Of a stretch of 64,000 nt of DNA, positions 945 through 49,145 are shown piece by piece. Under the pieces are notes generated by a model. That model made no database searches, was not told where the DNA came from, and was given only the letters and a program-made list of their open reading frames with translations. Made by a program: the position numbers and the translations under genes. Numbering within the stretch: position 1 is the stretch's first letter; each line of letters starts with the position of its first letter. This stretch comes from Rhizobiaceae bacterium (GTDB lineage: Bacteria; Pseudomonadota; Alphaproteobacteria; Rhizobiales; Rhizobiaceae), in the NCBI GenBank assembly GCA_035556195.1, contig DATMFK010000011.1, positions 24,900 through 88,899 of the forward strand, read 5' to 3'.

Positions 945-1449
945 CCCTCATCGGCCTGCCGGCCACTTCTCCCCGCTGGGGAGAAGGAGGCCTGCCGCGA
1001 TGGCGGTTCGTAATGAGAGGCGTTGTTGTCTGATGATTGGTGGGGCGGCGGTTGCGAGGGCTCCCTCATCGGCCTGCCGGCACCTTCTCCCCGGTGGGGA
1101 GAAGGAGGGCTGCCGCGAGGGCGGTTCGTCATGAGAGGCGTTGGCGTTCGGTGATTGTGGGGCGGTCGTTGCGAGGGCCCCCTCATCCGCCTGCCGGCAC
1201 CTTCTCCCCGGTGGGGAGAAGGAGGGCTGCCGCGAGGGCGGTTCATCATGAGAGGCGTTGGCGTTCGGTGATTGCTGGGCGGCGGTTGCGGGGGCCCCCT
1301 CATCCGCCTGCCGGCACCTTCTCCCGCCGGGGAGAAGGAGGCTTGCCGCGATGACGGTTGGCAATTTGGGGCGGTCGTGATTGGCGAAATCATATCGGCC
1401 GTCCTTCTTCTCCCTCGCGGGGAGAAGTGGCCGGCAGGCCGATGAGGGG
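945..1449. repeat. Tandem array of four REP-like family-A palindromes (period 117-118 bp) plus one inverted copy
   Basis: CCCTCATC(G/C)GCCTGCCGG(C)CAC(C)TTCTCCC-N-GGGGAGAAGG starts at 945, 1063, 1180 and 1297; inverted copy at 1407-1449. The spacers are diverged copies of each other. Confidence 0.95.
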
Positions 1450-2983: not shown

Positions 2984-3160
2984 CCCCTCATCCGACCTCG
3001 CTTCGCGAGGCCACCTTCTCCCCGTGGGGGAGAAGGAGAAGCTTGGCACCGACGGATCTGGAACGCGGCAAACGTTGGCGATTGGCGCAGACCTTCCCGC
3101 CACGCTCCCTCCTTCTCCCCCACGGGGAGAAGGTGGCCGCGAAGCGGACGGATGAGGGGG
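2984..3160. repeat. Family-A REP doublet (inverted pair)
   Basis: CCCCTCATCCGACCTCGCTTCGCGAGGCCACCTTCTCCCCGTGGGGGAGAAGG (2984-3036) and an inverted copy (3111-3160). Confidence 0.93.
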
Positions 3161-3171
3161 TGCCACGCCAG

Positions 3172-4089
3172 TCACTGCCCGCAGGTCACGCCCAGGCTCG
3201 CCCGATCAACCACCGTCGCCTCGACAAAGATCTCCTGCTTGCTCACCGGCTTGCCTTCCAGCACGTTGCCGATCTCGGCCACGGCCGCCCTCGCGATCCC
3301 TGGGAAATCCTGGCGCACGGTGGCGACGAGGTTGGTGCATTGCTTGATGAGCTCCACCGCCTGCGGGTTGCCGTCGATGCCGGCGATGATCATCTTGGCG
3401 TCGGGCGCGTCGCTCTGCTGGGCGAGCAACGCGCCGATGGCCGGCTCGTCCCAGGCCGCCCATACGCCGTTGATCTCGGCCCCGTGCTGGCGGATGAAGG
3501 TTTCCATGGCCAGCCGCGCATTGTCGATCGGGCCGGGCACCTGCACGTAATGCTCGGCGATCACCTTGATGTCGGGATGGGATTCCAGCGCCTTGTCCAG
3601 CGCGAGTTCGCGCTGGCGCACGCCGGGATGCGCCGAGTGGAAGAATTTTACGATGTTGCCCTTGTTGCCGAGCTGCTTGAACAAATAGTCGGAGAGGATT
3701 GTCCCCAGCGCGAAATTGTCGGTCGTGATGTTAGCGACGATGCCGGGCGCGATGGCGCCGTCGAGCGCGACGACGGGGATCTTCTTCTCCGCCGCCGCGG
3801 CCACCTGGTCGGCGATCTGGTTGGGGTCGACACTCACCAGCACGATCGCCTTCACGCCGGCATTGGTGACGTCCTCGACGCGGCTGGCGAGCTGCTGGAA
3901 GTCGCCGCGCGTGTCGACCACATTCACGGTCCAGCCCTTGGCCTCGGCGTCGGCCTTGAAGGTCTCGACCATCTCGTTGGTGGCGACCGAGCTGATGTAG
4001 GGCGTGAGCACGGCCACGTCCTCGGCCTGGGCCGTGCCGGCGAGCAGCAAAGCGGCGAGGCCGGCCAGCGTCGATAGAGTGCGTTTCAT
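3172..4089 (-). CDS. Sugar ABC transporter periplasmic substrate-binding protein
   Basis: Signal peptide MKRTLSTLAGLAALLLAGTAQA, RbsB-like motifs (ANITTDNF, IAGIDG, ATVRQDF), SD GGAGGAG upstream. Confidence 0.92.
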   Translation of the reverse strand: MKRTLSTLAGLAALLLAGTAQAEDVAVLTPYISSVATNEMVETFKADAEAKGWTVNVVDTRGDFQQLASRVEDVTNAGVKAIVLVSVDPNQIADQVAAAAEKKIPVVALDGAIAPGIVANITTDNFALGTILSDYLFKQLGNKGNIVKFFHSAHPGVRQRELALDKALESHPDIKVIAEHYVQVPGPIDNARLAMETFIRQHGAEINGVWAAWDEPAIGALLAQQSDAPDAKMIIAGIDGNPQAVELIKQCTNLVATVRQDFPGIARAAVAEIGNVLEGKPVSKQEIFVEATVVDRASLGVTCGQ

Positions 4090-44392: not shown

Positions 44393-44419
44393 TAAACATG
44401 ATGGTATCTATCATGTTTA
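44393..44419. promoter_or_regulatory. RirA/IRO-type box upstream of the AraC gene
   Basis: TAAACATGA-TGGTATCTA-TCATGTTTA: exact TGA-N9-TCA with perfect 10-bp arms. Confidence 0.7.
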
Positions 44420-45682
44420 TTCGGCCCGGCAACCCTGGTCGCCCAATTCCGCCAGTCTGCGCAGCAGGAAGCGCCGCTCCGGCTCCTGCCTGGCGAGCGC
44501 GAGCGCCTTTCGGTAGTCCGCCCGCGCATGGTCGATGCGGCCGAGGCGGCGAGCGAGGTCGGCGCGCGCGGAGTAGGCGAGGTGATAATCGGCGAGATCG
44601 CCGCGACCGAGGATCTCGTCGATCAGGGCAAGACCGGCCTCCGGCCCGTCGCGCATGGCGACGGCCACGGCGCGGTTGAGCTCGACCACCGGGGAGGGGG
44701 CCGCCCGCAGAAGCAGGTCGTAGAGGGCGATGATGCGAGACCAATCCGTCGCCTCTGCCCGGCGCGCGCGCATGTGTGTTGCGGCGATGGCAGCCTGGAT
44801 CGCATAGGCGCCGAAGCTCGGCGACGACAGCGCGCGCTCCGACAGGGCGAGCCCCTCCGTGATCTGATCGCCATTCCAGAGCGAGCGGTCCTGATCGCCG
44901 AGGAGCACGAGCTCGCCCGAAGGCGAGTTGCGGGCGGCGCGGCGCGATTCATGAAGCAGCATCAGCGCGAGCAGGCCGATCGCTTCCGCATCCGGCAGCA
45001 ACTCGACGAGCAGGCGCCCAAGGCGGAGCGCCTCTTCCGACAATTCGTGCCGCGTGAGGGCATCCCCCGACGAAGCGGAGTAGCCTTCGTTGAAGACGAG
45101 ATAGATCACGTGCAGCACCGGATCCAGCCGCGCCGGCAGCTCGTCCCGGCCCGGGACTTCGTAAGGGATACGGGCGTCCCGGATCTTCGCCTTGGCGCGA
45201 ACGATGCGCTGCGCGAGCGTCGGCGGCGTGGTCAGGAAAGCGTGGGCGATTTCCTCGGTCGTCAATCCGCAGACCTCGCGCAAGGTGAGCGCCACCTGGC
45301 CATCGAGCGGCAGCGCCGGATGGCAGCAGGTGAAGATCAGGCGCAGTCGGTCGTCCTCGATGTCGTGGGCTTCCGGCGGGTCCTGGTCCATGTCCTCCTC
45401 GATGCGCCTGGCGAGCTCGTCCCGTGACGCGTCGAAGCGGGCTCGCCGCCGCAGCCGATCGATCGCCTTGAAGCGGCCAGCCGAAATCAGCCAGCTCCGT
45501 GGATTGCCTGGGAGACCCTCGGTGGGCCATCGGTCGGAGGCGGCCATGAAGGCGTCGTGCAGGGCCTCTTCTGCCAGGTCGAAATCACCGAGAAGGCGGA
45601 TCAAGGTGGCGAGCACGCGGCGCGACTCCATACGGTAGACCGCCTCGACCTTCGCAAGCGTGGGGCCATCGTCTCGTTCCAT
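44417..45682 (-). CDS. ECF sigma factor with TPR-like C-terminal extension (ECF42-type)
   Basis: GDFDLAEEALHDAF, DDRLRLIFTCCHPAL, YLVFNEGY, PVVELNRAVA; adjacent DGPF gene. Confidence 0.92.
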   Translation of the reverse strand: MERDDGPTLAKVEAVYRMESRRVLATLIRLLGDFDLAEEALHDAFMAASDRWPTEGLPGNPRSWLISAGRFKAIDRLRRRARFDASRDELARRIEEDMDQDPPEAHDIEDDRLRLIFTCCHPALPLDGQVALTLREVCGLTTEEIAHAFLTTPPTLAQRIVRAKAKIRDARIPYEVPGRDELPARLDPVLHVIYLVFNEGYSASSGDALTRHELSEEALRLGRLLVELLPDAEAIGLLALMLLHESRRAARNSPSGELVLLGDQDRSLWNGDQITEGLALSERALSSPSFGAYAIQAAIAATHMRARRAEATDWSRIIALYDLLLRAAPSPVVELNRAVAVAMRDGPEAGLALIDEILGRGDLADYHLAYSARADLARRLGRIDHARADYRKALALARQEPERRFLLRRLAELGDQGCRAE

Positions 45683-45692
45683 GGCGCGCCGC

Positions 45693-46040
45693 TTAAAGAT
45701 CCATGATCGGGCGTATCTCGATGCTTCCAAGCCTGGCCAGCGGAATGCCGGACGCCGCACGGATCGCTTCGTTGAGATCGCGGGCCTCGATCAGGACGAA
45801 GCCGCCGAGGATTTCTTTGGTTTCGGCGAACGGTCCGTCGAAGGTGGATAGTTTTCCGTTTCTGACACGCACGGTGGTCGCGGAGGATACGGGCTGCAAG
45901 GCGTGTGCCAGGATCAACTGCCCGCGCCTGTCCAATTCCTGGTCATAGGCCAGAGACTCACGCGTGAGCGCCGCATCATCATCCGCCGAGAGGGCCGACA
46001 AAGCCTGCGGCTCGAAATAGACAAGGCATAGATACTTCAT
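45693..46040 (-). CDS. YciI/DGPF-domain protein
   Basis: MKYLCLVY...FDGPFAETKEILGGF...IEIRP; SD AGGAGGA. Confidence 0.92.
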   Translation of the reverse strand: MKYLCLVYFEPQALSALSADDDAALTRESLAYDQELDRRGQLILAHALQPVSSATTVRVRNGKLSTFDGPFAETKEILGGFVLIEARDLNEAIRAASGIPLARLGSIEIRPIMDL

Positions 46041-46067
46041 TCCATCCTCCTGTAACCAACATGCGTT

Positions 46068-46094
46068 GTCGCTTCCGAAGGCGCGATCTCGACA
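46068..46094 (-). promoter_or_regulatory. ECF42-type promoter driving the DGPF-sigma operon
   Basis: Minus strand TGTCGA (46094-46089) -N17- CGAC (46071-46068). Confidence 0.65.
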
Positions 46095-46129
46095 TCTCGC
46101 AGGAAAATTATTGTCCGACAGGGCTCGGC

Positions 46130-46156
46130 TGTCGATCCGGCAGAGCGTCGTTCGAC
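46130..46156 (+). promoter_or_regulatory. Second ECF42-type promoter, divergent
   Basis: TGTCGA (46130-46135) -N17- CGAC (46153-46156). Confidence 0.6.
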
Positions 46157-46184
46157 CATCCGCGAATGACGGACGGAGGCTACG

Positions 46185-46391
46185 ATGGATGTGCTGATGT
46201 TGGCGAGCAGGCTGCTCGGGCGGAACTATCCGCTCCCCGGCACGGGTCGCAGCGTGCTTTCCCTGGCGGCTGCACTCGTAGTGATCGCTGCGCTCGTCGC
46301 AGGCCTCGATGGCGCTGCCAGAAGTTGGAAATCGGAGAGCCTGGCCGGGGATAGTGGCATGCCTTTGCAAATTTCGGCAGAAACTCCTTGA
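46185..46391 (+). CDS. 68-aa single-TM hypothetical protein
   Basis: SD GGAGG; hydrophobic stretch VLSLAAALVVIAALVAGL; downstream of the predicted promoter. Confidence 0.55.
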   Translation: MDVLMLASRLLGRNYPLPGTGRSVLSLAAALVVIAALVAGLDGAARSWKSESLAGDSGMPLQISAETP

Positions 46392-46469
46392 TCGCGTCCT
46401 GAAGCGGCGCAAGAACACGCCGTCTGGGCGATTCCGGGTATAGGTGATCCGGTGGGCGGGAAAGGCGGC

Positions 46470-47645
46470 ATGAACAGCGCTTTTGCGCAAACCAAACGCG
46501 TCTCATGGTCTTCGCGTCTCAAGAATTCCGTGGTCGGCGTCCTCGCCGGGGTCATGCTGATCGCTGGCATGGTCTGGCTGCTCTTCTGGAATGAAGGGCG
46601 TACCATTCGAGAAGCGCGCTCGCTGGCCGAAGGGGCCGACCTCGTTGTGTCCGTCGATTCCGCTTCGGTCGATCCAAGCAATGAGGGCAGGCTCATCCAT
46701 GTCACGGGGCCGGTGACAACGTCGGCGCCGCTCTTCGATCCGATTTTCGGCGTGAGGGCGGAGGGCATCCGCCTGGTGCGGAATGTGGAAATGTATCAGT
46801 GGAAGGAGGAACCAATCTCGGAGACCGTGCCCAAGCCAGGTGGCGGAGAGGAGACGACCACGACCTACAGCTATTCCAAGGCTTGGTCGGACGCTCCGCA
46901 GGATTCCAGCCGGTTCCAGGTCGCGGCAGGCCATGAAAACCCGCCGATGCAGATTAGAGGCCAGCGTTTCCAGCTGAGCGAGGCAAAGCTCGGGGCGTTC
47001 GACATGGATGAGAGGATCCTGGGCCGGATCGGAGGTGAGCAACCCGTCGCGCTGACAAGGGAGCAGCTCACAGCGATCGGCGTGGCTTTCGGCGGAAGGC
47101 TCGCCAGCCTCGCGGAGAACGGCGCGTATATCGGCCTCAATCCGACAGCTCCAGAGATCGGCGATTATCGGATCTCCTACACGGTTGCGCCGCTCGGCTC
47201 GATGAGCGTCGTTGCCGCGCAGGCAGGCGGCGCACTCGAACCATATCCGACCACGATCGGCAACGAGATCCTGCTCGTGGAGCGCGGCGCGGTGCCTGCG
47301 GCCCAGATGTTTGCGGCGGCACAGGCCGAGAACGCTGCATGGAAGTGGGGCCTGCGGGCCACCGGGCTGTTTTTCCTGTTCGCAGGCTTCATCTTCGTCA
47401 CCGCACCCCTCAGTGTTCCGGCCGACGGGGTGCCGCTCCTCGGCAGCCTCCTCAGGCTGAGCACGGGCCTGGCTGCATTGGTGCTGACAACGATGACGGG
47501 AGCGGTGACTGTCGCTGTCGCCTGGTTCTCGTACCGGCCGCTGCTGGCGATCGGCGTCGTGGCGCTGGGGCTGGCGATCACGGCGGCCATGGTCGGCATC
47601 GGACGGCTGGGCCGACCGAAGATGGTGGCCGCAAGCAAGCGATAG
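46470..47645 (+). CDS. TMEM43 (LUMA)-family membrane protein
   Basis: LLFWNEGR, NEGRLIHVTG, LVRNVEMYQWKE, P.IGDYRISY, three C-terminal TM helices. Confidence 0.85.
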   Translation: MNSAFAQTKRVSWSSRLKNSVVGVLAGVMLIAGMVWLLFWNEGRTIREARSLAEGADLVVSVDSASVDPSNEGRLIHVTGPVTTSAPLFDPIFGVRAEGIRLVRNVEMYQWKEEPISETVPKPGGGEETTTTYSYSKAWSDAPQDSSRFQVAAGHENPPMQIRGQRFQLSEAKLGAFDMDERILGRIGGEQPVALTREQLTAIGVAFGGRLASLAENGAYIGLNPTAPEIGDYRISYTVAPLGSMSVVAAQAGGALEPYPTTIGNEILLVERGAVPAAQMFAAAQAENAAWKWGLRATGLFFLFAGFIFVTAPLSVPADGVPLLGSLLRLSTGLAALVLTTMTGAVTVAVAWFSYRPLLAIGVVALGLAITAAMVGIGRLGRPKMVAASKR

Positions 47646-47734
47646 CACCATCCCGTTTGCCATTCACCGAGGCGTGATTGGATCATCGGGGAGCCGACGC
47701 TAGGTTTTCCCGGCAACCATCCGGGGAGGACGCC

Positions 47735-48610
47735 ATGATCCCGATCACCCAGGCGATGATCGATGCCTATGACGAATACACGCACCTGACGCTCGACCGG
47801 CGCGGCTTCATGGAGAAACTGACCAAGCTGGCGGGTTCTGGCGCCGCCGCGGCGGCAATCGTGCCCCTCCTTGCCGCGAATTCGGCGCGGGCGGCGATCG
47901 TGGCCGAGGATGACGCGCGGGTGAAAGGGGAGGAGGTCTCCTATCCCGGCAGCGCGGGCGAGATGAAGGGTTATCTGGTGCGCCCGGCTGATGCGACCGG
48001 CAAGCTCCCCGGCGTGATCGTCATCCACGAGAATCGCGGACTCAATCCGCATATCCGGGATGTCACACGGCGTCTCTCTCTCGAAGGGTTCCTTGCACTC
48101 GCGCCCGACTTCCTTGCCCCCTATGGGGGAACGCCGACGGACGAGGACAAGGCGCGTGACATGTTCTCGGAGCTCGATCCGGCGCGCACCATCGCCGATG
48201 CCGTCGCTTCCGTCGCATTCCTCAAGTCGAACGAGGGCAGCAATGGCAAAGTGGGAGCTGTCGGCTTCTGCTGGGGCGGCGGCATCATCAACATGCTTGC
48301 CGTCAACGATCCCGAACTCGACGCGGCCGTGGCTTATTACGGTGCGCAGCCCAAGGACCCAGCCGCGATCGCCAGGATCAAGGCGCCGCTGCTCCTTCAC
48401 TATGCCGGGCGCGACGAGCGCATCAATGCAGGAATCGAGAACTACAGGAAGGAGCTGGACGCCGCCGGCAAGGAATATCAGGTTTTTGTCTATGAGGGCG
48501 TCCAGCACGCTTTCAACAACGACACGTCCGAGGCACGCTACAACAAGGAGGCCGCCGATCTCGCCTGGGGCCGGACCGTCGCTTTCCTGAAAGAGAAACT
48601 CGCTTCATAG
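47735..48610 (+). CDS. Dienelactone hydrolase family protein (YghX-like), possible Tat motif
   Basis: IHENRGLNPHI, VGFCWGG, HAFNNDT; RRGFM near the N-terminus. Confidence 0.92.
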   Translation: MIPITQAMIDAYDEYTHLTLDRRGFMEKLTKLAGSGAAAAAIVPLLAANSARAAIVAEDDARVKGEEVSYPGSAGEMKGYLVRPADATGKLPGVIVIHENRGLNPHIRDVTRRLSLEGFLALAPDFLAPYGGTPTDEDKARDMFSELDPARTIADAVASVAFLKSNEGSNGKVGAVGFCWGGGIINMLAVNDPELDAAVAYYGAQPKDPAAIARIKAPLLLHYAGRDERINAGIENYRKELDAAGKEYQVFVYEGVQHAFNNDTSEARYNKEAADLAWGRTVAFLKEKLAS

Positions 48611-48629: not shown

Positions 48630-49145
48630 ATGAGCGCTCCCCTCGTTCGGATATTCGAGCCGCAGGGCGGAATCCCGAACAGCGATCTGCCGCTTCTCCT
48701 ATGGAAGGGCCGGCTCCCGGCCCACTGCCGTGAGGGTGAGGCGGCATGTGCTCTCTACAGGGAGAACGGGTGGAGCGGCACATGGGTCTATACGGTCTAT
48801 CCGTTCTGGCACTTCCACACGCGCGGTCACGAGGTGTTGGGCTGTGTCGCCGGCCGTGCCCGGATCGGTTTCGGTGGCGATGGCGGCGAGGTCGCCGATA
48901 TCGAAGTGGGCGATGTCGCGCTCATTCCTGCGGGCGTCGGGCATCGAAAGCTGGAGGCGTCGCCCGATTTCCTGATGGCGGGCGGTTATCCGCCCGGACA
49001 GGAAGGCGACATTGTCCAGCCCGGAAACCTCGACGATGACGCCATTGCCGCCGAGATCCGCCGTCTCCCGTTGCCCGCAACGGATCCAATCACCGGAAGG
49101 TCCGATGGGGTCGTCGCGTTTTGGGGCAGGGCACAGCCAAGCTGA
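48630..49145 (+). CDS. Cupin-domain protein
   Basis: WHFHTRGHEVLG, GDVALIPAGVGH. Confidence 0.88.
   Translation: MSAPLVRIFEPQGGIPNSDLPLLLWKGRLPAHCREGEAACALYRENGWSGTWVYTVYPFWHFHTRGHEVLGCVAGRARIGFGGDGGEVADIEVGDVALIPAGVGHRKLEASPDFLMAGGYPPGQEGDIVQPGNLDDDAIAAEIRRLPLPATDPITGRSDGVVAFWGRAQPS

Follow-up and report, generated by a model that had tools for sequence, protein, structure and literature searches.

Known ECF42 systems and the sigma operon of the locus

The ECF42 sigma factors SVEN_0747, 4377 and 7131 of Streptomyces venezuelae, which Liu, Pinto and Mascher are said to have described in 2018 (J Bacteriol), reportedly have mainly DGPF genes as their targets and have no known anti-sigma factor. 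These factors resemble the system found in the window (the whole 64-kb stretch of DNA that was analysed) in having a C-terminal TPR extension of ~200 aa, an adjoining DGPF gene and a promoter of the TGTCGA / CGA(T)C type, although S. venezuelae belongs to another phylum than the window organism, which is an uncultured, Mesorhizobium-like bacterium of soil. To our knowledge, a bidirectional arrangement with a membrane-protein arm has not been described for the S. venezuelae ECF42 factors.

The ECF42 sigma factors, the TPR extension they carry, the DGPF genes beside them and the type of promoter they read have already been published (PMC6180224, PMC8999054, PMC8103513). Promoters of the Sinorhizobium meliloti ECF42 factor RpoE10 have the form TGTCGG-N17-CGTC and were mapped by transcription start site (TSS) determination and overexpression, with target promoters located upstream of SMc01149-SMc01148 and SMb20475-SMb20474 (PMC6180224). 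RpoE10 induces only non-DGPF operons, which encode SRPBCC-like and glyoxalase-like proteins, and the S. meliloti YCII-rpoE10 operon is not induced by RpoE10 (PMC6180224), indicating that autoregulation is not universal among ECF42 factors. The sigma factor of the window is likewise a rhizobial ECF42-type factor with a TPR extension that is encoded downstream of a YCII gene, its candidate promoters share the TGTCGx-N17-CGxC geometry with the same N17, and its putative targets, as with RpoE10, include non-DGPF genes, some adjoining the sigma locus. The two systems differ in their hexamers (TGTCGA and CGAC in the window in comparison to TGTCGG and CGTC for RpoE10) and in their targets, as a small transmembrane (TM) protein together with TMEM43, dienelactone hydrolase (DLH) and cupin proteins would take the place of the SRPBCC-like or glyoxalase-like proteins. 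Additionally, the second candidate promoter of the window is divergent and forms a back-to-back arrangement with that of the sigma operon itself, and whereas the S. meliloti YCII-sigma operon is not autoregulated, the well-placed and conserved site ahead of the window's operon suggests that autoregulation occurs here.

The sigma gene (44417..45682, minus strand, 421 aa) encodes the Pfam domains Sigma70_r2 and Sigma70_r4_2 with no region 3, and its product scored 44.6 bits against the NCBIfam sigma70-ECF model (cut-off 42.9). Its C-terminal extension was composed of DUF6596 (1.5e-35) followed by TPR_2, TPR_8 and TPR_1 matches at residues 394-425 of the 447-aa ORF, with TPR E-values of 1e-4 to 3e-4 that fell under Pfam's own cut-offs. 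The first gene of the operon (45693..46040, minus strand, 115 aa) matched Pfam YCII (E = 6.6e-24), contained a literal FDGPF, had its ribosome-binding site GGAGG at 46050-46046 and ended 10 nt from the sigma start. Domain analysis was therefore in agreement with the sequence-only reading, in which the minus-strand motif had been proposed to face a DGPF-sigma operon, as a YCII gene with the DGPF motif is followed by an ECF sigma gene with TPR repeats. Searches of Pfam and NCBIfam returned no match to an anti-sigma family among the neighbours of the sigma gene, with the divergently encoded small TM protein having no family assignment.

The sigma factor was 69-77% identical to sigma factors encoded beside YCII genes in Gemmatimonadota, Acidobacteriota and other phyla, with Vicinamibacterales and Geminicoccaceae also among the annotated sources. 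The neighbouring TMEM43 protein, unlike the sigma factor, had close relatives only in Mesorhizobium-like sequences. This difference in distribution suggests that the sigma factor is unusually conserved or that the YCII-sigma cassette has spread horizontally.

A conserved motif pair in the 144-bp gap

Two copies of TGTCGA-N17-CGAC with equal spacing on opposite strands had been reported within 90 bp, and both were recovered as exact matches at 46068-46094 (minus strand) and 46130-46156 (plus strand). A scan of the 64-kb window found no copy outside the gap (46041-46184); the count expected for the window was 0.29, and at least two copies occurred in 3 of 100 shuffles. In the candidate promoter that faces the DGPF-sigma operon (46068..46094, minus strand) the -35 element TGTCGA lies at 46094-46089 and the -10 element CGAC at 46071-46068, while in the candidate promoter that faces the small ORF (46130..46156, plus strand) the corresponding elements lie at 46130-46135 and 46153-46156. 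The two -35 elements are positioned back to back at a distance of 35 bp and form an inverted repeat (TCGACA...TGTCGA), and start codons follow 27-28 nt 3' of both sites, each with GGAGG ahead. A position weight matrix (PWM) derived from 74 distinct sites at ECF42 loci of other phyla exceeded 8 bits at only two places in the window, which were the plus site (23.9) and the minus site (10.6); the low value of the minus site counts against its assignment. Transcription is predicted to start at about 46059-46062 from the minus-strand promoter and at about 46163-46165 from the plus-strand promoter. Applying the RpoE10 TSS offset of ~9 nt places the starts near 46059 (minus) and 46165 (plus), and these predicted starts would give two leaders of ~20 nt, each with a GGAGG.

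Orthologous loci were collected through the closest TMEM43 homologues and the contigs that carried them. A six-gene module, in which the YCII and sigma genes are divergent from the small ORF and the TMEM43, DLH and cupin genes that follow it, was present in 11 distinct loci; the module loci were the window, L001 (Mesorhizobium sp. 1B3), L081-L085 and L087-L091, with L086 being a duplicate of L085. TMEM43 identity across these loci decreased to 59% and the outer flanks varied among HpaB, AraC, glyoxalase or ABC genes. Both ECF42-type motifs were kept in all 11 distinct module loci while the spacers diverged, and in the nine-locus alignment 19 of 20 motif columns were invariant, as against 14 of the 115 remaining columns of the intergenic region (Fisher p = 2e-13). 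The plus site read TGTCGAT...TCGAC in all module loci; its spacing was N17 except in L001, the only one of 12 sequences with N16, and TGTCGATC as well as TCGAC were invariant among the nine aligned loci. The minus site kept N17 in all 12 sequences with a -35 element of TGTCGA in nine and CGTCGA in three, and its CGAC and TCGAC columns were invariant in the same alignment. Invariance also extended to an A two bases past CGAC at both module sites (46066 and 46158), and the distance from the plus site to the start of the small ORF was conserved at 27-34 nt. Across loci, the two -35 elements stood 34 to 44 bp apart while the -35/-10 spacing was 17 (16 once), and this combination of a fixed internal spacing with a variable distance between sites argues for two promoters rather than a single dimeric operator.

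Our survey of 80 metagenomic loci encoding sigma factors like that of the window identified 79 exact TGTCGA-N17-CGAC sites; the background frequency of the motif in Mesorhizobium-like DNA was ~0.0014 per kb-strand. YCII-family genes were faced by 56 of the 79 motifs, which reproduces the published ECF42/DGPF association. A further 19 faced non-YCII genes, and the latter included genes for DUF899, VOC/glyoxalase, RibD_C and GyrI-like proteins, an ABC ATPase, a MacB-like permease, an MFS transporter and 51-aa TM peptides. The extended consensus of the PWM was TGTCGATTT...CCG(A/T)(A/T)CGACTA (74 distinct sites), with the A two bases past CGAC found in 72 of 74 sites, so that the extended -10 element CGACnA is common to the survey and to both window sites. 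The sequence-only reading had proposed an ECF42 regulon extended to membrane proteins. Motif conservation and the CGACnA element lend this proposal comparative support, but RpoE10 and the 19 survey motifs leave little reason to regard the non-DGPF nature of the targets as unusual.

A second site divergent from the YCII-sigma promoter was also observed in two survey loci, L116 (about 1100-1151, minus strand) and L136 (about 3100-3173). As in the window, a second TGTCGA-N16/17-CGAC lies 28-49 bp off the YCII-sigma promoter and faces a small hydrophobic ORF that is followed by a larger gene; unlike in the window, these encode a peptide of the MCPxC type and a DUF899 protein, neither of which is related to the small ORF or to TMEM43. 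Such back-to-back pairs were found in only 2 of about 26 survey loci with a YCII gene upstream of the sigma gene. In L168 the divergent site (about 2600-2719) is separated from the YCII-sigma promoter by ~800 bp, so that the two are not back to back, and it precedes an MCPxC-type ORF and a DUF899 gene.

Separately, TM peptides of ~50-60 aa with the sequence GPYLxxEILLPGGTLxALLLY were encoded directly behind ECF42-type motifs and downstream of the sigma gene in loci of other phyla (L119 5218-5420, L144, L158, L148 and L113). Homology of the small ORF to the 51-aa GPYLxxEILLPGGT peptides was considered and rejected, as the hhalign probability was 1.4%.

Overall, the two sites in the 144-bp gap are in our judgement probably both ECF42-dependent promoters that act as a bidirectional pair.

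The small membrane protein and the TMEM43 arm

The plus-strand motif had been described as facing a 68-aa single-TM ORF and then a TMEM43-family gene, and both assignments were upheld. The small ORF (46185..46391, plus strand) is preceded by GGAGG at 46176-46180 and encodes a protein of 68 aa with one hydrophobic segment (residues 19-47). About 45 aa of it form a conserved core, composed of MDxLxLAxxLLxxKYxLPxxRRxVLSL and the TM helix that follows. Its start, frame and first ~44 codons were free of indels in nine loci and pairwise dN/dS values were mostly 0.2-0.5; this pattern marks the small ORF as a real gene under coding constraint, which is restricted to its clade. The protein was 45-49 aa long in five of the nine aligned loci (47 aa in L001) and 64-68 aa in the rest, and as the tail is variable or absent, with the L001 stop falling after 47 codons, the C-terminal tail is evidently dispensable. 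At 3717-3857 of L001, which comes from the cultured Mesorhizobium sp. 1B3, the 47-codon small ORF goes together with a plus promoter spacer of 16 nt. Only 14 sequence clusters of this family were present among 5.8 billion proteins and all contexts examined were this module. A search of NCBIfam gave no family for the product of the small ORF or for those of the YCII, TMEM43 and cupin genes.

The conserved part of the small protein comprises a cytoplasmic N-terminus of ~22 residues and the TM helix. One speculative reading, which we regard as improbable, is that it serves as a sigma-induced, membrane-anchored partner of the TPR extension of the sigma factor, providing anti-sigma-like feedback or signal input. 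ECF42 factors are not known to have anti-sigma factors. If this reading were true, ECF42 factors would gain a link to the membrane, and the unrelated small TM peptides encoded first behind ECF42-type promoters in other phyla would be a general feature.

The TMEM43-family membrane protein gene (46470..47645, plus strand, 391 aa) begins 78 nt after the small ORF, and its product covered positions 1-250 of the 250-position PF07787 profile (219.8 bits against a cut-off of 23.3; E = 4.8e-65), with an N-terminal TM segment and a C-terminal TM cluster. It is followed by a YghX-like dienelactone hydrolase gene (47735..48610, plus strand; Pfam DLH 4.6e-54) with a Tat-like RRGFM signal, which scored 310.7 bits against the NCBIfam YghX family model and so remained under the 460-bit cut-off of that model. 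The DLH gene was in the module at every locus long enough to show it. The last gene of the conserved module is cupin-like (48630..49145, plus strand; weak Pfam Cupin_2 and Cupin_1 matches) and its position was conserved in L001, L081-L084, L086 and L089-L091.

Between the small ORF and TMEM43 we found no terminator, Rfam match, significant fold or conserved RNA structure, and little covariation. A hairpin at this position in L088 was discarded as a candidate, since it was not kept in L089. With no terminator after the small ORF, read-through into TMEM43 is plausible. The same region holds a conserved block (CCTTGATCG...GCGGCGCAAGAAC; 46385..46420, plus strand) that was kept in all module loci, even at those where the small ORF ends earlier, and was also present in L002 and L003 (about 3905-3945), which carry TMEM43-DLH with no sigma gene or small ORF. 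The block showed no covariation and no Rfam match; this lack of an RNA-structure signal suggests that it is probably a DNA-level regulatory element, and its distribution is that expected of an ancestral element of TMEM43's own. As the block is common to sigma-less relatives, TMEM43 may be transcribed mainly from there.

The ECF42 motif was also considered as a general feature of TMEM43 genes and was rejected, because the other 79 of 80 TMEM43 loci had no sigma gene nearby and the motif was not enriched upstream. It is likely that a cassette of YCII, sigma and small-ORF genes became fixed beside TMEM43-DLH in one Mesorhizobium-like clade, and TMEM43 would consequently be under dual control.

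A sigma70-like site was noted between TMEM43 and DLH at 47657-47686. The organism was represented in only two soil metatranscriptomes, in which fragments matched the coding regions of YCII and TMEM43 with 100% identity and a 1.6-kb contig started at 47729, just before DLH, with a depth above that of the TMEM43 fragments. These are assembled contigs of low depth that indicate no transcript ends and that all lie outside 46028-46689, a range which takes in the intergenic region and the small ORF. The site at 47657-47686 and the contig start at 47729 together indicate that DLH-cupin may have its own transcript.

These observations bear on how far the plus-strand promoter would reach. Under the strongest of the alternatives, it would serve the small ORF alone, and TMEM43, DLH and cupin would be expressed from their own promoters outside the regulon. 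This would account for the maintenance of the block upstream of TMEM43 in the sigma-less loci, for the lack of motif enrichment at the 79 other TMEM43 loci, and for the sigma70-like site and contig start ahead of DLH. It is harder to reconcile with the short 78-nt gap, with the lack of a terminator or conserved hairpin in the window, and with the four plus-strand genes travelling with the sigma gene as one module while the outer flanks change. We consider this alternative doubtful, albeit deserving of weight, and regard co-transcription of TMEM43 with the small ORF as somewhat more likely than not.

Alternative readings of the gap and the proposed switch

The region between the two -35 elements contains a conserved A/T-rich block, GAAAATTATTG (46101..46112), in which AAA was invariant in nine loci. 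A promoter scan also returned a sigma70-like site, TCGACA-N17-AATAAT (46135-46107, minus strand), with a 10/12 match, which overlaps the plus ECF42 -35 element but points the other way; 8 of 9 loci kept an A/T hexamer at sigma70-like spacing. The block may act as a UP element for both promoters or represent the -10 element of a minus-strand sigma70-type promoter, and the site at 46107-46135 may provide the DGPF-sigma operon with basal expression. Taken further, this match could be interpreted to mean that only the minus site is an ECF42 promoter, with the plus-strand TGTCGA being maintained as the sigma70 -35 element TCGACA of the DGPF-sigma operon. Such a reading leaves unexplained the invariant plus-side TCGAC and +2 A at a fixed 17 nt, as well as the conserved 27-34 nt to the GGAGG-bearing small ORF, and the two assignments are not exclusive, as promoters may overlap. 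Since the plus-strand -10 element is not accounted for, the sigma70-like site is better regarded as an addition than as a replacement, and we hold the sigma70-only reading to be very improbable. The weakest alternative, in which the two sites are not promoters but the halves of an operator bound by a dimeric factor (such as the product of the AraC-family gene located downstream of the sigma gene), fits the TCGACA...TGTCGA inverted repeat and the AraC-family gene that adjoins the sigma gene in the window, L001, L085 and L091, but is extremely improbable given that the half-sites stand at variable distances and yet each has a partner element at a fixed 17 nt, that the sites are kept in L081, L083, L088 and L089, which lack the AraC gene, and that the same 27-nt motif precedes YCII genes beside ECF42 sigma genes in unrelated phyla.

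The explanation that we favour is that the gap promoters are a bidirectional pair that would be read by the adjoining ECF42-type sigma factor. The minus-strand promoter would autoregulate the DGPF/YCII-sigma operon, and the plus-strand promoter would drive the clade-specific small single-TM protein, with transcription probably also entering TMEM43 and perhaps DLH and cupin. Activation of the sigma factor would then turn on both arms together. We infer that this sigma factor reads both sites, that transcripts start at the predicted positions and that TMEM43 is co-transcribed; any other ECF42 paralogues encoded in the genome could be readers of the gap sites.

In summary, this type of switch is already known, and what is new here is its particular, well-conserved link to a TMEM43-family gene and to a small TM protein confined to one clade. 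A promoter pair that would tie an ECF42 sigma factor to TMEM43 offers a simple handle, and the module is also present in a cultured strain, Mesorhizobium sp. 1B3. The genes that ECF42-type motifs precede in our survey point to a response to small molecules or chemical stress in which envelope components take part, and DLH and cupin, if read from the plus promoter, would fit this picture of chemical stress. Knowledge of ECF42 factors is thus refined, and not overturned, by this locus.
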